A stretch of 19,679 nt of DNA from Candidatus Hadarchaeales archaeon. Lineage in GTDB: Archaea; Hadarchaeota; Hadarchaeia; Hadarchaeales; Hadarchaeaceae. Below are positions 2-15,550 of this stretch, piece by piece. Each line of letters opens with the position of its first letter. Within the stretch, counting starts at the first letter, position 1. The translations under genes were made by a program, and so were the position numbers. The notes under the pieces are model-generated. The model was not told where the DNA came from, ran no database searches, and saw only the letters and a list, made by a program, of their open reading frames with translations. The stretch covers positions 2,668 to 22,346 of the forward strand of contig JAVZGN010000017.1 in the NCBI GenBank assembly GCA_038872135.1, read 5' to 3'.

Positions 2-1810
2 GAAACTCTGGTCAGTGGCGACCTGCACCTCATAGACGAGTGGGTAGGAGTTTTCATCTACTGTCTGCCAGTCCAGCATCGGAGTGTTGTTTTTGTTTTC
101 CCCAAGGGCGTCGTTGCCGAGGTTCTCTCCGTTGGCCGGATGGAGGAGCGGGAGGACAGCCGGCGGAATTGTGTCCACGCGGAACTGCCATGTCTCGGAG
201 TTGTCTGAGTTTGATCCAGTCCTTGTCATTCGCACGCGCCAGTAGTAGACTCCATCTGAAAGTTCGATGAAGTCTTGGTCGAAGTCGTAGCTTGAAGCGC
301 TCAAAACCTTTTCGACAATGTAGGGGGGAGTGAATGTAGGTTCATCGTCAACCCAGAGAGCGAAGGAGTCGGCTGGCTGGAGGTTGTCCCAGTCAAGCGT
401 CGGGGCTTTGTCGTTCAAGTTCTTCCCGTTTTCTGGGGTGAGCAGAACTGGAGCGGGGATTGGGGCGGCGATGGTGGATGTCCAGCCTTCAGCCAGCTGC
501 CACTGAGCCGTTGTCGTGATAGTGTCAGTCCAGTCCTCTCTGAGCGCCCAGCCCGTTATCGGAGCATTCACCGCCGCCGTCCAGCTCTCCACCAGAATCC
601 ATCTGCGCAGGCTCACCTTGAAGACGTAAGACCACTCGTTCTCGTTGCCCACGAAGTCCCTCGCCTTCACCCTCCAGTAGTAGGTGCCGTAGGAGGAGAA
701 GTTGAAGAGATATGTGTTTTCACTTGGCGGGCGGAGGGTGTTCTCTGTGAAAGGCGAGGTAAAGGTTGGCTCATCATCAATCTGAATCCAGTAGTTTTCA
801 ATTCCAGATTCTCCATCGCTCGCCCAATACCACTGGAAGTTGACGCTTAGAGTTTCCAGGTCGGCGTTGTTCTCAGGCTTGTACAAGGAGACGACGGTTG
901 GCGGGCGGTTGTCAACAACGAATGAAAGTACCGCGGAGTTCTCCGAGATGTTCCAGATGTTGTCTCTTGCGGAGACCTTCCAGTAGTAGGTTGTGTTGTT
1001 TGCGGTTGCCGGGATGGCAATCCAGTTGTCATCGGTTATCCATCCCGAGGTCTGGGTTGCGGCCGCTGGGAACCCTGGGTCGGTGGAGATGTATACCTGA
1101 TAGTAAATGGGCGTTGTCATCTCGGTGTTTCCGGCGTTGTCCAGCGTTACGGCGGGCCAGTCCAGGTTTGGCTGCGGGCGGACATACTGCGGGGTGGCGA
1201 TTGGAGATGGGACGGCCGGGGGCTTTGTGTCAATTCTGAAGCTCCAGTAGTATGAGGTGTAGAGCCCCTCGTTCCCTGCGTTGTCCTTTGCCTTGACCTT
1301 CCAGTAATAGGTGCCGTCAGAGAGCTCTGAGACCTCGTGGAAGTTGTCGGAGAGCCATGGGCTTGGGTTGTATCCCGGGACGAGGTCGGTGAAACTTGTG
1401 TTGCGGGAAATCATAAGCTGGTAGGTGAGGGGATAGGAGTTTTCGTCTGGAACGGTCCACTTCAACCGTGGGGTGTTGTCGTTGGTGATGGTGCCGTCTG
1501 CTGGAGAGTAGAGGTCCGGCGGGCTCGGGGCAAGGGTGTCGACTCTGAAGCTCCACGGGGCAACCCAGGCATACCATTTGTTGTTGTACCTCCTCTGGAC
1601 CCTCCAGTAGTAGGGATTGTCCGCGAGAGGAGATGTCGGCGTCCATGTGTTTTCGCTTCCAGGGATATTTTCGTTGTCGACCACAGGGTTTGTAAAGTTG
1701 ATATCTGTGGCGATCTGGATGTGGTAGTTGTCGGCGGCAACAGTTTCCCAGTAAAATGTTGGGGTTGGATTGTTTGTTGTAGAGCCGTTCGCCGGGGAGA
1801 TGAGGTTGGG
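2..1810 (-). repeat. Array of about 100-aa Fn3/Ig-like repeats (five complete, one cut by the window edge) within the giant protein
   Basis: Recurring pattern P.L.sP.NG....TP...W.....Y..Q...D..F....YYW.V....W.F.VD; approximate units 1810-1530, 1530-1225, 1225-915, 915-610, 460-170, 170-<1. Confidence 0.8.
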
Positions 1811-4800
1811 AAGGGTTGAGGCGTTTATCTTCACCCAGTCGACCTTTGGGCCGCTAGCCCCTGTCAAGTTTGCAGTGTTGGTCGAGAAGTATATCCTGTA
1901 CTGGATGTAGCGGTTGTCGGGGATGTTCTCCATCGACGTTGTTGCGGCCTCAAAATAGGTGTTTGAGGTTCCGCTGGGGCCCATCCAGTCCGTCCAGCTG
2001 ATGTTGTCTTCGCTCACCCTGAGCTGTAGCTTCACATCCGATGTCCCCCAGAAGGCTTCCTCTATCCTCACCATGTCTAGAATGACATAAGTTGTGGTGG
2101 AGTCGGAGGGGTTGCTGTCTTCAAACTTTACATGGATGTTGTCCCCATCAAGATAATTGGAAATTGGCGAGAGGCGGAATGTTCTCGTGCTGGGGGTGTT
2201 CTTCGGTATGTAGTCGTTGAGGAATTCCCAGCTGTTTGTGCTCACATTCCAAACGTAGATGTATATGTCCTCGACGACTGGGTCTCCGTAGGCATAGCCG
2301 CGGATTTTCAGGTCGTAGTTCTCGTATCCTGTACCCACGCCCGTAATTGTGTGCTGCCACCTGAGGGACTGACCAGGCGCAAGCAGTTTTATTTCTCTGA
2401 CTCGGACATAATCAAGCATCAAGCTGGTCTGTTTGATATCTGACTGCGGTTGCCTGAAGCGGACACGGACCATCCCAGTACCCAAAATATAGTTTGTACC
2501 TGTTATGTCGTAGGTGAACGTGTTGGGAGAACTTGGCGTCCCTCCGCTCAGTGTTCCAACCTGGTCCCACTGGCCAGTGAAGAAGTTCCAGAGGTAGACA
2601 TAAGCAGGTTCTGTATCCCCGCTCTCACCTGTGACATAGTACCTGACCTGAAGCTCGTAGTTGTCCTTTGAAGGGGCCGCCATGATCGTGTGCTCCACGT
2701 CGAAGTATCTTGCAAATGGATAAATGATGGCCATGTTCATATTTTCAGTATAGGTAGTGGAGGCGCCGCCTATCCAATGTTTAAGTGCAAATGTGTTGGT
2801 TCCAGCCGTCAGGTTTGCCCGTTTCAGGAAGAGTCCGGAGATGTAGGGGGCGGCCGACCTCTGTGTATCACCTGCCTCAGAGCAGTTTTCGCTGCCAATC
2901 CAGAAACCATTGAAAGCGGGTACGGTTGCTGAACCGCTTCTGTACAGGCTGGACGCCATGGCAAGGTGATATCCTGTGTTGGCGATGGTCGGGGAATAAA
3001 CAAACGCGTTGGTAGGAGTTGTTGAAGCAGTGCTCCCCCGCTCCATGTTCTCGTTCTCATAATATATCATGCCAGCCAAAGGTATGGCAACTATCCTCGC
3101 CCTCTTCGCTGTACCAGTTCCACCGCTCGTCCACCCGCCCAACCTGATGGTGTGTTGGTTGGCGTCAAGGTTTTCCACAACCATGTATGCAAATGATCTG
3201 TAATCGTTGGCCGCGGTCGTCCATAGAGCAAATGTGTCGTTTTCAACTACACCGCCGTCAATTTGTAGATTGAGATAGACCCCTCTGTTGGCAGTTCCAT
3301 GGGTTGCCTCAGAGGAGACCAAGATTAGGTAGTTATCTGGTTGTGGTGGAGTAAACGTCAGGGAGGTGATTTCACTGAATGAAGTCGTTAGACCTTTTGC
3401 AGTTTCCCTTTCGGAGTACTGTGTACCGCTTGGTAGCTTGAAGGCAACGATTTTTGCATGTCGCGCATAAGCAGTGTCCGTAGCAACGCCTGAATTGTAT
3501 GTTATCTCAGCGGTGTGCTCCGTGGCGTCAAGAGCAATTTTTTTGACCCACCCTATGTTTGTTCTTGAAGTTGTTGCCCGCTCCACGATGTATGTCTCTC
3601 CGTAAACAGTACCATCAATTGTGAATGTGGCGTAAACTTTGTTGGCTGTAGAAGATGAGCCGATTTCAACGCTTGCGATAATAAGATACTCCCCTGCAGA
3701 CGGTGTGAATGTCAGCGTGACAGCAGGAGTAGGCACATCTGATGTTATACTTTGTTCGGCTTCCACATTTTCGTAGTAAATGAGTTCAACTAAATTCTCG
3801 GAGATGTTTTCGTAGTTCAGATCTGCCGCCTTCGCATTCTCAAAGTCGATGGTTGTCCCATCATATACATTTTCTGTTGAAACATAAGAGTAGGTTATCT
3901 GTTGGCTTCCTCCCCCAGTGCTAGCCTCGCTCAGGTTCTCCACGGAGCCATCATCCGGCTGCCTGGTATTCTCATAGCTTCCCTGCCACTGCGTTCCCAC
4001 CCTGCTGCTTCCATCTTTGAGAGTATCCGGCTCTGCTCCAACATAGTCGATATCTGAAGCCGGCTGCTGTGGCTCAACAAAGCTCCACTGGAGGTTGTCC
4101 CACTCAGCAACTCCTCCAGCGTCGAAAACTCTGGAGGTAAACCGACCTTGAGTGTAGTTTTGAATCAGTCTCACATAGTTGTCGACATTCTCCGTGTTCT
4201 CATGAGTTCCTTGGGAGTAGTCTATGTCTGTGTTGTCGACAATGGAGAAGATGGAGAAACCCGGAGTGGAGGCAAGTATGCGGAGGCTTGCGGAGTCCTC
4301 CCCAGCCTCGGCCACAGGGAGGCTCTCCCACCTTGCCCCTCCAAAGTGGTAGACCTCAACCCTGCTCCCTCTCCACAGTGTTCCTTGGAGCCAATCCTTT
4401 GGAACCTCAAACTCTATCTCCGCCTCTTGAATCTCTTCGTTCAGCAGCGATGTCGAGATTTCAGCATAAGCCAGAACCCTTTTCCCCTCCAGAGCAGGAA
4501 CTCCTGCCGGCAGCGCCTCGAGCAGCTCCACCGAGACCTCAGCATCGTTTAGGTCAGCCTTCGGAGCAATCCTAACAGCTTTCACAGCCCCTTCATTAAC
4601 CTGAGCAATCCCCTTCTCCCCTGCTCTCAGCGCACCCATCCTCACCCTCTTGACCTTTTCAACACGGCTGAGAGACACATCATAGGCCTTCGGCCCTGTA
4701 GCCCCGCTGAGAGCAGGGCTTTCGCTGGAGAGGACAACGCGATATTGGAGGAAGCGTCCAACGAGAACCCTGCGGCCATCGGCGTCCTCCCACCCGCTCC

Positions 4801-6082
4801 ATCCAACCCCGTCCCTGCTCACCCTCGCCTGCACCCTAGCGGAGGAGTTGCGGATGACCGCCCTCTCAACAGCGCAGTAGTCGATGCTGAGGCTCGCAGC
4901 TTCGCCATCATACTTCACATAGACGCTCCCGCCAACTAGGTGCTTCCTCTCAAGGGTTTTTTCAACAGCTTTCCTCACATTGTCGAGAGTGCCGGCAGCC
5001 TCCCAGCCTGAGCCATCCCAGATGTAAACGGTGACCTGTCCATCCGCCGTCTGCCCAACCACCCTCAGGACAAGATTTTCAGCACCACCGGCGACATCGA
5101 TCCTGTGCTGCCACCTGAGTAGATGTCCAGCATTTCCCGGCGCAGGGTTTTCAGGGATCGCGTTTTCCTCCACAGCTGGAAGGTTCTCTTCAACCACAGC
5201 AGCGTTTTCACCGGTTGTTAGGAATTCAGTGTTTTCCTCCGTGGAAGCAAGGTTTTCCTCGGCTACAACGGCAGTTTCCCCCGCAAGATTGTCCTCAACC
5301 ACAGCGATGTTCTCTTCACTCGCCGGAAGCTCCGTGGTTTCGACAGGGGTTTGGATGTTTTCCTCGATGGTGACTGAAACTTCTTGGAACTCAGCTGGGC
5401 TTTCAGACGTCAAGTAGAGCGTCCTCCCTTCGGTCTCCCCAGCAGTCATAACAGGCTCCCCGGCGATGATTTCAGAGTTTCCGTCTATCCCGGAGAGGCT
5501 CGTGGGCGACCCAGCCGCCCTAGTCCCGATTCTTTCCATCCCGTCGACGAGCACCTCGGCCTCCTCAGCAACTCCAAAGACCAGGACCCCTGGGATTGAC
5601 GGCTCCTCTTTCTTCCAGGAGAGCTCCCACCTCACAATCCTCTCGGCGGAGATGATCTCGGAAGTGTAAGCCCCAGAAGTGTAGCCATAGATGAGCCTCA
5701 GAACCCCCCCGACATTCTCCACATTCTCAAATGTTCCAGCGGGAGGGGCGAGGGCTTCCTCAGCGGCCGCAAGAGGAACAGGAATTGGAGAAAGAATCAT
5801 GGAGAAGCAGATGAAAAGGGAAATCGCGCGGTAAAAGAAAAGGCCCCAGTCGTGGGGGGTAGCGGGAGCGGCACCCACTTCAAAGTTCAGGGCACCGCTC
5901 CCGCCGGTTGGGGGTGGAAAATCAGCTTGAGTGGGGGTCTTGGGGAGCGGCACCCCCTGCAATGTCTGGGGCACCGCTCCCCGGGGGGATGAAAAATTAG
6001 AGGAAGAGGGGGCCGGGGAATGAGCATTAGAAATAGAGCAATTCAACGGGATATCTGCCGATTGGGAACATCTATACGACAT
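2..6082 (-). CDS. Giant secreted/cell-surface protein (at least 2027 aa, 3' end outside the window): signal peptide, duplicated beta-rich module, internal PGF-pre-PGF domain, three tandem jelly-roll-like repeats, at least 6 Fn3/Ig-like repeats
   Basis: Manual translation of the minus frame shows no stop from the upstream TAG (6131-6133) to position 2. The first ATG is at 6082; the true start may be GTG 5878. Hydrophobic signal-like stretch WGLFFYRAISLFICFSMILSPIPVPLAAA|EE; ASTPGFSIFSI near 4260; repeated DGTYYWKVKAKDNAGN / YYWRV...WSFRVDT motifs at 1-1810; many N-x-S/T sequons. Confidence 0.93.
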   Translation of the reverse strand, partial: MSYRCSQSADIPLNCSISNAHSPAPSSSNFSSPRGAVPQTLQGVPLPKTPTQADFPPPTGGSGALNFEVGAAPATPHDWGLFFYRAISLFICFSMILSPIPVPLAAAEEALAPPAGTFENVENVGGVLRLIYGYTSGAYTSEIISAERIVRWELSWKKEEPSIPGVLVFGVAEEAEVLVDGMERIGTRAAGSPTSLSGIDGNSEIIAGEPVMTAGETEGRTLYLTSESPAEFQEVSVTIEENIQTPVETTELPASEENIAVVEDNLAGETAVVAEENLASTEENTEFLTTGENAAVVEENLPAVEENAIPENPAPGNAGHLLRWQHRIDVAGGAENLVLRVVGQTADGQVTVYIWDGSGWEAAGTLDNVRKAVEKTLERKHLVGGSVYVKYDGEAASLSIDYCAVERAVIRNSSARVQARVSRDGVGWSGWEDADGRRVLVGRFLQYRVVLSSESPALSGATGPKAYDVSLSRVEKVKRVRMGALRAGEKGIAQVNEGAVKAVRIAPKADLNDAEVSVELLEALPAGVPALEGKRVLAYAEISTSLLNEEIQEAEIEFEVPKDWLQGTLWRGSRVEVYHFGGARWESLPVAEAGEDSASLRILASTPGFSIFSIVDNTDIDYSQGTHENTENVDNYVRLIQNYTQGRFTSRVFDAGGVAEWDNLQWSFVEPQQPASDIDYVGAEPDTLKDGSSRVGTQWQGSYENTRQPDDGSVENLSEASTGGGSQQITYSYVSTENVYDGTTIDFENAKAADLNYENISENLVELIYYENVEAEQSITSDVPTPAVTLTFTPSAGEYLIIASVEIGSSSTANKVYATFTIDGTVYGETYIVERATTSRTNIGWVKKIALDATEHTAEITYNSGVATDTAYARHAKIVAFKLPSGTQYSERETAKGLTTSFSEITSLTFTPPQPDNYLILVSSEATHGTANRGVYLNLQIDGGVVENDTFALWTTAANDYRSFAYMVVENLDANQHTIRLGGWTSGGTGTAKRARIVAIPLAGMIYYENENMERGSTASTTPTNAFVYSPTIANTGYHLAMASSLYRSGSATVPAFNGFWIGSENCSEAGDTQRSAAPYISGLFLKRANLTAGTNTFALKHWIGGASTTYTENMNMAIIYPFARYFDVEHTIMAAPSKDNYELQVRYYVTGESGDTEPAYVYLWNFFTGQWDQVGTLSGGTPSSPNTFTYDITGTNYILGTGMVRVRFRQPQSDIKQTSLMLDYVRVREIKLLAPGQSLRWQHTITGVGTGYENYDLKIRGYAYGDPVVEDIYIYVWNVSTNSWEFLNDYIPKNTPSTRTFRLSPISNYLDGDNIHVKFEDSNPSDSTTTYVILDMVRIEEAFWGTSDVKLQLRVSEDNISWTDWMGPSGTSNTYFEAATTSMENIPDNRYIQYRIYFSTNTANLTGASGPKVDWVKINASTLPNLISPANGSTTNNPTPTFYWETVAADNYHIQIATDINFTNPVVDNENIPGSENTWTPTSPLADNPYYWRVQRRYNNKWYAWVAPWSFRVDTLAPSPPDLYSPADGTITNDNTPRLKWTVPDENSYPLTYQLMISRNTSFTDLVPGYNPSPWLSDNFHEVSELSDGTYYWKVKAKDNAGNEGLYTSYYWSFRIDTKPPAVPSPIATPQYVRPQPNLDWPAVTLDNAGNTEMTTPIYYQVYISTDPGFPAAATQTSGWITDDNWIAIPATANNTTYYWKVSARDNIWNISENSAVLSFVVDNRPPTVVSLYKPENNADLETLSVNFQWYWASDGESGIENYWIQIDDEPTFTSPFTENTLRPPSENTYLFNFSSYGTYYWRVKARDFVGNENEWSYVFKVSLRRWILVESWTAAVNAPITGWALREDWTDTITTTAQWQLAEGWTSTIAAPIPAPVLLTPENGKNLNDKAPTLDWDNLQPADSFALWVDDEPTFTPPYIVEKVLSASSYDFDQDFIELSDGVYYWRVRMTRTGSNSDNSETWQFRVDTIPPAVLPLLHPANGENLGNDALGENKNNTPMLDWQTVDENSYPLVYEVQVATDQSF
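2717..3781 (-). repeat. Three tandem diverged repeats of about 118 aa within the giant protein
   Basis: Shared elements: LTFTPSAGEYLIIAS / LTFTPPQPDNYLILVS / YSPTIANTGYHLAMAS; LDATEHTAEI / LDANQHTIRL / LTAGTNTFAL; ARHAKIVAF / AKRARIVAI / TENMNMAII. Confidence 0.75.
5852..6000 (-). repeat. Tandem duplication with a period of about 79 bp; each copy forms a 15-bp GC-rich hairpin
   Basis: Arms at 5862-5876/5890-5904 and 5942-5956/5968-5982; the core gggagcggcaccc...gggcaccgctccc recurs at offset 79. Confidence 0.88.
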
Positions 6083-13099: not shown

Positions 13100-15550
13100 A
13101 TGGTTGGAGGATATGCTGGCAGGATCCTCAGAGTAAACCTGGCTGAGAAAAAGATTGTAGATGAGCCGCTAGATCTGAGAATTGCATACAATTTTCTGGG
13201 GGGACGTGGTTATGGAGCATACATCCTCTACAAAGAGCTGAAGCCGAAAGTAGATCCACTTTCTCAAAATAACAAAATTGTGGTGATGACCGGTCCTCTC
13301 ACAGGAACGATGTTCCCGGGAGCCGGCAGAACTGCAGTTTGTTCAAAATCTCCATTGACAGGCACAATAGCGGATTCTCTCATGGGCGGTTCATTTGGAG
13401 TTTTTCTCAAGCGGGCCTTATTCGATGGAATCATTATTGAGGGCAAGGCCGAAAAACCGGTTTATCTTGTGGTTGAGGATGGCGAGGCTTCTCTCGAGGA
13501 CGCCGGCGATATCTGGAGCAGGGGAACAGCCGAGACAAAGGAGCTCCTCCTTAAAAAACATCCCGGCTCCTCCGTCGCAGCAATTGGGCCGGCTGGAGAA
13601 AACCTCTGTAGATTCTCGACAATTTCATCTGGTGGTAGTGGCAGGGACGGCATCGCTGGGAGATGCGGCATGGGGACGGTGATGGGGTCAAAAAATCTCA
13701 AGGCGATAGTGGCATGTGGCTCGGCGAAAATCGAGATCTCCGATGAGAAAAATGCTCAGAAGCTCTTGAGGAAGATAAGGGGGCTTGTGGAAAACCATCC
13801 GATAACAGGCTCAGATGGAAGTCTCGCGAGATTTGGAACTGGAGTCCTCGTTCACAAGATAGCATCCGCCGGTCTTCTCCCATCCTTCAACTTTTCAAAC
13901 AAAAAACTTGATTACAAAGAGGTAGACCCATTCTCCGGGGAAACTGTAAAGGAAAAATATCTCTTGAGACGCACAGCCTGCTTTGCATGTCCAACCGCCT
14001 GCGGTAGATGGGTGAGGGTTGGAGTTTGGGAAGGAAAGGGTCCAGAGTTCGAGAGTGTGGCGATGCTCGGCCCAAACGCCGGCTTTTTTGATTATGAGAA
14101 AGAGATAGTCCCTCTGAGCAACCTTTGCGACGATTTGGGTCTAGACACAATTTCCGCTGGTGCCTTGTTGGGCTACCTCAGGAAAGCCGGCAAGATAACC
14201 AGCGTTGGTGATGCAGTGAAGGTTCTGCAAGATGCAGCTTCTGGAAAATCGCTTTTCAGCTTGGGCTTGGCGGAAGTAGCCAAGAAGATTCGTGGTCCGG
14301 TAGCTCCAGTGGTTAAAGGACTGGAAATGCCCGCTTACGATCCCAGAGGGGCAAGGGGGATCGCCCTGGCTTATGCTACCTCAAACAGAGGGGCCTGCCA
14401 CCTCCGGGCATACACCATCGCCCCGGAAATCTACAGCAACCCAGAGTTCGTGGATCCATCAACAGAAGTAGGAAAAGCATCTCTGGTTAAAAAAATCCAG
14501 GATGCTTACGCCGTCTACGATTCCTTGGTGGCATGCAAGTTTCACAGTTTTGCGCTCTTTGCTACTCTCGACTTTGAGTTAGATGATATCGCAAGGCTCC
14601 TGACAGCCGTCACAGGGTTAATGTGGACTGGAAAGCATCTGAAGGAGGTCGGAGCCAGAATCTATTCTCTCGAAAGAATGTTCAATGTGAGAGAGGGTTT
14701 CACGGCAAAGGATGATTCACTGCCAAAGGAGTTCGGAATAAATCTCCAACGCATGCTTTCAGAGTATTACAGGGAGAGGGGCTGGAGCGCCTCGGGGGTG
14801 CCGAAGAAGACAATTCAACTGAGAAATGTTAGGAGGGGAAAGCTAGGTGATTTCAAGCTCACCCCACTGGAAGGTCTGAAGTTCCCACAACTTCAGGTGG
14901 CTCTAGACCTGGATGCAGATCTCTCCACAATTGAGAAAATAGCAAAAGAAGCCTACGCTGGAGGGGCGAGAATAATTGAGGCTGGCACCCCGGCGATCAA
15001 AAGGCATGGCGTGGAGAAGCTCCTGCCTAGGCTTAGAAAGGCTGCTCCGGAAGCGATCCTGGTGGCAGACCTAAAGACAATGGATGTGGGAAATCTTGAG
15101 GCGAGGATTGCTTTTAGGGCGGGAGCGGATATCTCGGCAGTTTTGGCGATAGGCGGAAAAGCGAAGATAGTTGAGGCAGTGGGCGAAGCCATCCGCTGGG
15201 ACAGGGCAATTCTAATAGATTTCATCGATTGCCAGGACCCGCTGGCGGTGATGGAAGATTTGGCAAAGGAACTGGTTGGACATGAAGACAGGGTAATCTT
15301 TTGCATTCACAGGGGGATAAGCGAGCAGCTGAAGGGCCGGGGGATCCACGAGCAGGCCCAGCTGATAGCCGAGGCAAAGAAGATCGCGGGCAGGTTCCCA
15401 CTTGCAGTGGCCGGGGGGATAAAGGAAGGAGTGGCAAAGGATGTGGCTGCGGCAGGAGCGGACATTTGCATCGCCGGAGGCGCCATCTACAACTCTGCTG
15501 ATCCAAGAGAAGCCGCAAGGAGAATCCTGAAAGAAATAGTTTCCAAGTGA
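13100..15550 (+). CDS. Fusion protein: tungstopterin aldehyde:ferredoxin oxidoreductase (AOR/FOR family, aa 1 to about 570) plus 3-hexulose-6-phosphate synthase-like domain (HPS/KGPDC, aa about 596-816)
   Basis: AOR part: GGRG, KSPLTG, IGPAGEN, GR.GMG.VMGSKNLKAI, CFACPTAC plus distal C (ACKF), GPEFE, DDLGLDTIS, RGACH, YYRERGW..GVP. HPS part: LQVALD, IEAGTP.IK.G, ADLKTMD, HRG, VAGGI, GGAI. No stop in the linker. Confidence 0.93.
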   Translation: MVGGYAGRILRVNLAEKKIVDEPLDLRIAYNFLGGRGYGAYILYKELKPKVDPLSQNNKIVVMTGPLTGTMFPGAGRTAVCSKSPLTGTIADSLMGGSFGVFLKRALFDGIIIEGKAEKPVYLVVEDGEASLEDAGDIWSRGTAETKELLLKKHPGSSVAAIGPAGENLCRFSTISSGGSGRDGIAGRCGMGTVMGSKNLKAIVACGSAKIEISDEKNAQKLLRKIRGLVENHPITGSDGSLARFGTGVLVHKIASAGLLPSFNFSNKKLDYKEVDPFSGETVKEKYLLRRTACFACPTACGRWVRVGVWEGKGPEFESVAMLGPNAGFFDYEKEIVPLSNLCDDLGLDTISAGALLGYLRKAGKITSVGDAVKVLQDAASGKSLFSLGLAEVAKKIRGPVAPVVKGLEMPAYDPRGARGIALAYATSNRGACHLRAYTIAPEIYSNPEFVDPSTEVGKASLVKKIQDAYAVYDSLVACKFHSFALFATLDFELDDIARLLTAVTGLMWTGKHLKEVGARIYSLERMFNVREGFTAKDDSLPKEFGINLQRMLSEYYRERGWSASGVPKKTIQLRNVRRGKLGDFKLTPLEGLKFPQLQVALDLDADLSTIEKIAKEAYAGGARIIEAGTPAIKRHGVEKLLPRLRKAAPEAILVADLKTMDVGNLEARIAFRAGADISAVLAIGGKAKIVEAVGEAIRWDRAILIDFIDCQDPLAVMEDLAKELVGHEDRVIFCIHRGISEQLKGRGIHEQAQLIAEAKKIAGRFPLAVAGGIKEGVAKDVAAAGADICIAGGAIYNSADPREAARRILKEIVSK

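Follow-up and report, generated by a model that had tools for sequence, protein, structure and literature searches.

An aldehyde:ferredoxin oxidoreductase fused to a 3-hexulose-6-phosphate synthase-like domain in Hadarchaeales and other uncultured archaea, a candidate bifunctional enzyme of the reverse ribulose monophosphate pathway

The window analyzed here, a stretch of 19,679 nucleotides (positions 2,668 to 22,346 of contig JAVZGN010000017.1) from the genome of a Candidatus Hadarchaeales archaeon (hereafter G000), encodes at 13100..15550 (+ strand, stop codon included) a protein of 816 amino acids, in which an aldehyde:ferredoxin oxidoreductase (AOR) is joined in frame to a domain resembling HPS (3-hexulose-6-phosphate synthase). 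The fusion itself is confirmed by the open reading frame (ORF), by Pfam and NCBIfam matches, and by clusters of homologues. Judging from the sequence, we favor with moderate confidence the view that it is bifunctional and acts in the reverse ribulose monophosphate (RuMP) pathway, in which HPS cleavage would be coupled to oxidation of the formaldehyde released.

Results

The ORF begins with ATG and runs without an internal stop through three Pfam domains on one chain, as a preliminary description of this DNA had read it: AFOR_N at residues 7–207 (13118..13720; all gene coordinates are on the + strand; E = 7.4e-75, 251.5 bits against a gathering score of 29.8), AFOR_C domains 2 and 3 at residues 222–571 (13763..14812; E = 3e-89, 300.1 bits against 27), and OMPdecase, an HPS-like (beta/alpha)8 domain of the OMPdecase fold, at residues 596–809 (14885..15526; E = 2.5e-24, likewise far above the gathering score). 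The modules are separated by a linker of weak sequence conservation and of the type of subfamily A described below, residues 572–595 (14813..14884 by the Pfam bounds), in good agreement with the linker of about 25 residues first placed near 14805–14880. The motifs named at that stage were all found at their places in the translation.

The architecture is not a rarity and occurs in several archaeal phyla. Among the best 120 homologue clusters from a collection of 5.8 billion proteins, with identities to the query from 68% down to 41%, 112 carry AFOR_N, AFOR_C, and OMPdecase together; the other eight are one N-truncated fragment (AFOR_C and OMPdecase) and seven AOR-only proteins of 562–571 amino acids. 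The source names of the clusters include Hadarchaeota/Hadarchaeales, Bathyarchaeia, Nezhaarchaeota, Methanomethylicaceae, Hodarchaeales, "Thaumarchaeota", and "Thermoprotei", and a scan of named genomes with the AOR motifs, yielding at least four fused loci among the 80 loci listed, adds a metagenome-assembled genome (MAG) of Aenigmatarchaeota. Public annotations among the best 120 clusters are generic ("aldehyde:ferredoxin oxidoreductase", "3-hexulose-6-phosphate synthase", or "OMP decarboxylase/HUMPS family protein").

The continuity of the gene was further examined in public contigs assembled from hot-spring metagenomes, the runs that contain the sequence. A 1438-nucleotide contig of run X2 spans 14494–15550 with 20 substitutions and no gaps, and a contig of run X1 spans 14142–14898 and is identical to the window; the two runs belong to two studies, and X1 may be the source sample of the window. 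Both contigs cross the linker, and none of the public contigs aligned to the gene contains an indel anywhere in it. An artefact of assembly or gene calling, by which two neighboring genes were joined through a lost stop or a frameshift, has no evidence of its own beyond a broken frame in another genome (G006) showing that such errors or decay do happen, and it can be rejected as having practically no chance of being correct, because the same continuous frame runs through over 100 independent clusters and through 22 genomes of Hadarchaeota and the contigs of two studies traverse the linker without indels, so that misassembly is excluded for practical purposes. The locus in G006 (L109, 1089–3577 on contig C14, = L014) is broken inside the HPS part, where ORFs of 679 and 159 amino acids overlap, and represents either a sequencing frameshift or a pseudogene. 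Within the AOR part, a segment of 51 nucleotides (13654–13704) is matched by short contigs of runs X2, X3, and X5 (depth 30–91) that are divergent to either side of it; this is a conserved stretch of AOR sequence common to more abundant organisms, and not a feature of the fusion gene.

By its Pfam domains, its cysteines, and its Glu, His, and Asp motifs, the N-terminal part belongs to the tungsten AOR family. In the HMMER alignment with Pyrococcus furiosus AOR (1aor_A), from whose coordinates the 1aor_A residue numbers were counted, the [4Fe–4S] cysteines C294, C297, and C301 (C-x2-C-x3-C, 13979..14002) and the fourth, C479, correspond to Cys288, 291, 295, and 494; the active-site residues E318 (in G-P-E-F-E) and H434 (in R-G-A-C-H) to Glu313 and His448; and the pterin-motif residues D344 and D349 (D-D-L-G-L-D) and D474 to Asp338, 343, and 489. 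The roles of these residues are those that we take from the AOR structure literature. In an alignment of 109 full-length fusions (proteins of 780–870 amino acids; 11 rows left out, namely two fragments, seven AOR-only proteins, and two proteins of 991 amino acids), C294, C297, C301, C479, E318, H434, D349, and D474 are invariant (109/109), and D344 varies as D, N, or E. The part is compact, with 568 query residues aligning to 595 of 1aor_A (about 30 residues shorter), and yet complete in its cofactor-binding and catalytic residues, as had been supposed. The label "AOR/FOR" given to it earlier stands only in its first half. The best matches among solved structures are 9mqx_D (393 bits), 1aor_A (388), 9g7j_A (361), and 8c0z_A (329), whereas P. 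furiosus formaldehyde:ferredoxin oxidoreductase (FOR; 1b25) reaches 254 bits and WOR5 168 bits, and in the fold comparison the template-modelling (TM) score is 0.88 to AORs (identity 39–40%) and 0.85 to FOR (33%). Thus, the AOR part, which is not closer to 1b25 than to other AOR-family members, is clearly nearer to AOR-type chains and is not a FOR orthologue; since AOR chains exceed 1b25 in bits, TM score, and identity, the name FOR is unsupported.

The C-terminal domain is supported as HPS-like by its best-scoring family and by its metal-binding and catalytic residues. Among NCBIfam models, HxlAB (138.7 bits), Fae/HPS (138.6), and the HxlA domain (132) score far above KGPDC (40–55) and pyrF (29–36), and the best solved relatives are an HPS-PHI chain (9lj9_B; PHI, 6-phospho-3-hexuloisomerase) and Mycobacterium gastri HPS (3ajx_A), at about 101 bits each, against about 33 bits for solved KGPDC and 42 bits for OMP decarboxylase; the TM score to 3ajx is 0.88. 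D603 in beta-1, E627 (in E-x-G-T-P), D657, K659, D662, and H737 are invariant in all 109 fusions and near-invariant in 156 unfused HPS domains, so that the suprafamily catalytic motif D657-L-K659-T-M-D662 (15068..15085) is intact, as the preliminary description had stated. The same description had pointed to the sequence H737-R-G-I-S741 (15308..15322), which retains the invariant His but has Ser in place of Asp. The deviation is real, although it is a trait of the fused lineage and not a local defect: Ser or Thr occupies the position in 99 of 122 fused domains (Asp in the remaining 23) and in 10 of 156 unfused ones, nine of which lie inside the fused clade A. As the sequences are related, this is a trait of the lineage rather than 99 independent events. 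Ser741 also opens the sole poorly modelled stretch of the protein, residues 741–750, which corresponds to the mobile active-site loop of KGPDC and HPS structures.

In an AlphaFold2 model of the whole protein built on the 109-row alignment, the mean predicted local-distance difference test score (pLDDT) is 94.5 and the predicted TM score (pTM) 0.91, with pLDDT of 85–94 in the linker and about 50 in the 741–750 loop. The high pTM and the confidence of the linker indicate a predicted fixed mutual orientation of the AOR and HPS modules, rather than beads on a string. A complex prediction of the AOR part against the HPS part, each supplied as an alignment, gave scores of 0.25 and 0.18 against a mark of 0.32 and speaks neither for nor against an interface.

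By alignment, the fusions fall into two subfamilies. Subfamily A, to which the window protein belongs and which comes mostly from Hadarchaeota and Bathyarchaeia, has the compact AOR and, in place of the usual AOR C-terminal helix, a new, weakly conserved linker of about 25 residues; subfamily B (Nezhaarchaeota, Methanomethylicaceae, Hodarchaeales, Bathyarchaeia, and Aenigmatarchaeota) retains that helix, followed by about 8 residues, and its HPS domain scores 188–205 bits on HxlA (205 in genome G066). Trees of the AOR domain recover A and B with support of 1.0 and 1.0 (FastTree, 211 rows) and SH-aLRT values of 100 and 99 (34 rows), and a quick tree groups A and B together with two bacterial AORs, though weakly (SH-aLRT 83). 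HPS-domain trees (FastTree and quick IQ-TREE) place A and B apart; however, in the approximately unbiased (AU) test on 64 HPS rows, the tree constrained to unite them outscored the free quick tree by 40.2 log-likelihood units (p-AU 0.876). Because one clade was not rejected and a weak joint group exists in the AOR tree, the idea of convergent, independent fusions in A and B was dropped, and both subfamilies may go back to one ancient fusion that later diverged and spread laterally.

The fused gene has also come apart. The genomes G028, G044, and G052 have stand-alone HPS genes, each of which begins at a start codon of its own, lacks an upstream AOR, and falls inside the fused clade, and seven stand-alone compact AORs (P0069–P0075) are nested in clade A. 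The HPS part has been duplicated in proteins of 990–1030 amino acids; in L016, L017, P0103, P0104, and P0129, the hosts of which include an Aenigmatarchaeota MAG, the AOR is followed by two HPS-like domains, one of them partial and the other full. In P0125–P0128 (602–666 amino acids), a clade-A HPS domain stands behind an N-terminal part of 380–430 amino acids with no significant Pfam match. Residues 303–610 of P0126 match, by hhalign, the last ~90 AOR residues, the linker, and HPS, and the four proteins look like decayed AOR-HPS fusions.

The metabolic setting of the fusion was assessed in G000 (1.08 Mb, 34 contigs, 91% complete) and in a survey of 66 Hadarchaeota genomes. In G000 the fusion is the sole OMPdecase-family match, and a stand-alone PHI is present (205 bits against a cut-off of 160); the genome thus has the PHI, and neither another HPS nor, in a profile search of this 91% complete genome, a Fae was found, which answers the questions raised at the outset about these partners. 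G000 also contains six further AOR paralogues (seven AORs in all) and transketolase, transaldolase, and RpiA. A junction-spanning match to the fusion occurs in 22 of the 66 genomes, and one more (G003) is cut before the junction. PHI exceeds the cut-off in 19 of these 22, is cut by a contig end in one, and was not found in two (70% and 88% complete), whereas a canonical HPS occurs in none of them, as against 11 other genomes of the phylum. Since the fusion genomes have PHI but no canonical HPS, the fused domain behaves as the HPS of the genome. Fae-HPS was found in seven of the 66 genomes and overlaps with the AOR fusion in one of the 22 (G058), and HPS and PHI are both lacking from genera g9, g18, and g19 (14 genomes). 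Three genomes with subfamily B likewise have no HPS besides the fusion, with a PHI of 189.5 bits in one, a partial PHI-like match of 156 bits (just under the cut-off) in another, and none in the third.

The four genomes of the genus (G000, G043, G044, and G045) measure about 1.0–1.3 Mb. A pyrF-type OMP decarboxylase was not found in G000 or G043, and no CODH/prismane-family gene was found in the four genomes; these gaps, together with those in PurP, PurT, FTHFS, and FocA-type channels given below, hint at a reduced nucleotide and one-carbon metabolism in the genus, with the reservation that gene absence is not proven in genomes that are 88–95% complete. In another Hadarchaeota genus, a row of four genes (L123, 5739–9585 on the minus strand of G010:C16, with the same layout in L124, G009:C97) comprises a DapA/KDG-aldolase-family gene, a 593-amino-acid AOR, and a pair of SIS genes resembling PHI (133 and 147 bits, under the cut-off of 160), and is a second association of aldolase, AOR, and sugar-phosphate isomerase. 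Its AOR is, of the unfused AORs of the phylum, the most similar to that of the window (47%).

The fusion gene stands by itself, flanked by genes for an Ogg glycosylase (divergent) and a Ski2-like helicase (convergent), and its wider flanks are of housekeeping character (Ogg, hemerythrin, GNAT, a Toprim protein, PanB, UbiA, the Ski2-like helicase, and topoisomerase VI). The PHI gene lies on a separate contig (C13), among genes for DUF655 and ribosomal protein L21e, and inspection of both neighborhoods found no operon link between the two. Elsewhere in the window, a very large ORF on the minus strand (2–6082, more than 2027 amino acids) runs off the end; its sole Pfam matches are Ig-like, and it is probably a surface protein.

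Discussion

Many archaea make pentoses by the RuMP pathway run backwards, with release of formaldehyde, and the fate of this formaldehyde where tetrahydromethanopterin and Fae are lacking is, to our knowledge, an open point of archaeal central metabolism. In the predicted reaction sequence of the fusion protein, the separate PHI would convert fructose-6-phosphate to 3-hexulose-6-phosphate, which the C-terminal HPS domain would cleave to ribulose-5-phosphate and formaldehyde; the N-terminal AOR domain, with its tungstopterin and [4Fe–4S] cluster, would then oxidize the formaldehyde to formate, passing two electrons to ferredoxin (two reduced ferredoxins). Formaldehyde would thereby be removed beside its site of release, so that it is detoxified and an unfavorable cleavage is pulled forward, a logic shared with Fae-HPS. 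We favor this sequence because it follows the logic of fusing consecutive steps, has a precedent in Fae-HPS, and is in agreement with the presence of PHI and the lack of a detected Fae. The HPS equilibrium lies strongly on the side of condensation, and the potential of formate/formaldehyde is near −0.53 V; for both reasons, a ferredoxin-linked oxidation would pull the cleavage. Both halves look active, as suggested by the invariance of their catalytic and cofactor residues. That formaldehyde is the substrate of the AOR, that flux runs towards cleavage, and that any channelling links the two sites are what we infer.

A number of observations weigh against this assignment. The AOR part resembles broad-specificity AORs over FOR, and nothing points to formaldehyde specificity. 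The HPS domain scores 132–136 bits on TIGR03128 (HxlA), under the 200-bit equivalog cut-off, and has Ser741 four residues past the catalytic His, where 141 of 156 unfused HPS domains have Asp; the low score and this residue together make an altered specificity possible. No consumer or exporter of formate was identified: the alpha subunit of formate dehydrogenase was not found in G000, nor were FTHFS and a FocA-type channel in the four genomes of the genus, in which PurP (PF06973) was likewise not found (0/4) and PurT gave only weak ATP-grasp matches far below the cut-off. The notion that formate feeds purine synthesis is therefore not supported, with no PurP and no PurT over the cut-off in the genus. 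G044 (95% complete) and G045 (88%), of the same genus, have a stand-alone HPS of this lineage together with PHI and no AFOR_C match, so that HPS works without any AOR there, which speaks against obligatory coupling. In G044, this HPS is a 232-amino-acid gene (L106, 5711–6409 on G044:C4), and no AOR-family gene was found in either genome, compared with seven in G000. Kin genomes are also not independent, and the co-occurrence counts given above overstate the case accordingly. Lastly, reverse RuMP would not be the sole route to pentoses, since transketolase, transaldolase, and RpiA are present; with the non-oxidative pentose phosphate set complete, a role in biosynthesis alone becomes less compelling, and there is room for a catabolic, ferredoxin-yielding cycle.

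Going a step further, we may speculate, as an extension that is rather unlikely to hold in full, that the fusion forms the core of a ferredoxin-linked "oxidative RuMP shunt". Hexose phosphates would be cycled by PHI, transketolase, transaldolase, and RpiA, all of which are present, with removal of one carbon per turn, which would be passed as formaldehyde between the packed sites without escaping and be oxidized to formate; the hand-over would be gated by the Asp-to-Ser change next to the mobile HPS loop, as an adaptation specific to the lineage. Such a shunt, if true, would give archaea a tungsten-dependent counterpart to the oxidative pentose phosphate pathway, delivering low-potential electrons instead of NADPH.

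The two halves might instead act in parallel or be merely co-expressed, either at a formaldehyde branch point (fixation or oxidation), as the preliminary description had also considered, or as two unrelated activities, with no transfer between them. The repeated fission without loss of either gene, in the HPS genes of G028, G044, and G052 and the AORs P0069–P0075, is in line with this explanation, and an external supply of formaldehyde from hot springs is conceivable, though conjectural. We consider it improbable, since the fusion has been kept across several archaeal phyla at 41–68% identity, the model packs the modules confidently (pTM 0.91), and two sinks for one substrate gain nothing by being fused.

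There is a somewhat slender chance that the specificity has changed, such that the HPS relative cleaves or forms another keto-sugar phosphate and hands another aldehyde (for example, C2 or C3) to the AOR. This is suggested by the HxlA score under the cut-off, by the Asp-to-Ser change beside the mobile loop, nearly confined to the fused lineage, and by the broad-specificity type of the AOR part. On the other hand, the metal-binding and catalytic residues of HPS are invariant, Asp is kept in 23 of 122 fused members, and PHI tracks the fusion without another HPS partner in 21 of 22 genomes; the HPS substrate is the only PHI product that we know of.

Poorly placed, and in our judgement to be credited with only a small probability, is the opposite direction, in which the AOR reduces formate to formaldehyde with low-potential ferredoxin and HPS condenses the latter with ribulose-5-phosphate, so that formate is assimilated. 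The favorable condensation would pull the unfavorable reduction, and the logic of consecutive steps fits both directions; AOR-family enzymes are reversible, the runs bearing the sequence come from hot springs, and the HPS of subfamily B meets the HxlA cut-off (205 bits in G066) and hence is a canonical synthase. CODH/prismane-family enzymes are a common route to low-potential ferredoxin, but neither these nor a formate channel were found in the genus, nor the formate dehydrogenase alpha subunit in G000. Furthermore, the organisms, with small genomes and seven AORs, look heterotrophic, and the analogous Fae-HPS is read as cleaving in archaea (cited in PMC8407382).

The coupling of HPS cleavage to formaldehyde oxidation would have consequences beyond this lineage. 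The conserved fusion is "Rosetta-stone" evidence for AOR-family enzymes as a formaldehyde sink, it suggests how some archaea dispose of toxic formaldehyde, and it makes the idea testable on a single polypeptide. In the AOR family, most members of which lack a physiological substrate, one clade would thereby gain one, and the fusion, if reversible, would offer a natural template for the conversion of formate to sugar.

The archaeal RuMP pathway has been studied by Orita, Goenrich, Kato, Thauer, and colleagues, and KGPDC and HPS by the Gerlt group. A separate AFOR has been proposed to oxidize formaldehyde alongside HPS and PHI in Brockarchaeota (PMC8065059), HPS-PHI and Fae-HPS are both named (PMC6946796; PMC11291895, in which AORs are treated separately), and reverse RuMP is invoked in Bathyarchaeia (PMC8407382); the literature covered also included PMC7143981, PMC10547907, PMC4725937, and PMC8027215. 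The preliminary description knew of no report of the AOR-HPS fusion, and none was found by full-text searches of a library in which few subscription journals are represented, although a mention in gene tables or older papers is possible. Its phrase "third solution" undercounts, however, since three HPS fusions are already on record in NCBIfam, the partners being PHI, Fae, and a ribonuclease-regulator-like domain. AOR-HPS is apparently a further, undescribed HPS fusion, to a redox formaldehyde sink, and is widespread in uncultured archaea.

The fusion may be compared with the known systems nearest to it. M. gastri HPS (3ajx) and HxlA (TIGR03128) have the fold, metal ligands, D-x-K-x-x-D motif, and catalytic His in common with the fused domain, which differs in its subfamily-A score under the equivalog cut-off, in Ser for Asp, and in its position behind an AOR. 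P. furiosus AOR (1aor) and the related 9mqx, 9g7j, and 8c0z share all cofactor and catalytic residues with the fused AOR, at 39–40% identity and a TM score of 0.88, whereas the latter is about 30 residues shorter and has no free C-terminus; AORs known to us stand alone or bind redox subunits, without any sugar-phosphate aldolase domain. Formaldehyde oxidation is usually ascribed to FOR, and P. furiosus FOR (1b25) has the same family and fold (254 bits, TM 0.85), but the fused domain is clearly nearer to AORs. In HPS-PHI (NF041755; solved as 9lj9), a homologous HPS domain (101 bits to 9lj9_B) is fused to a pathway neighbor; there, however, the partner is the preceding or following sugar-phosphate isomerase and not a formaldehyde sink, whereas Pfam found no SIS/PHI domain on the window protein and PHI is a separate gene in G000. 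The known analogue is Fae-HPS (NF009833) of methanogens and other archaea, which likewise joins HPS to a formaldehyde-consuming module, is read as serving ribulose-5-phosphate synthesis by reverse RuMP, and occurs in the same phylum with a largely complementary distribution (seven of 66 genomes, one overlap in 22). Its N-terminal Fae domain of 160 amino acids, a domain (PF08714) that Pfam did not find in the window protein, traps formaldehyde on tetrahydromethanopterin without redox chemistry. In clear contrast, the partner of HPS in the window is a tungstopterin/[4Fe–4S] oxidoreductase of 575 amino acids, which would yield formate and reduced ferredoxin.

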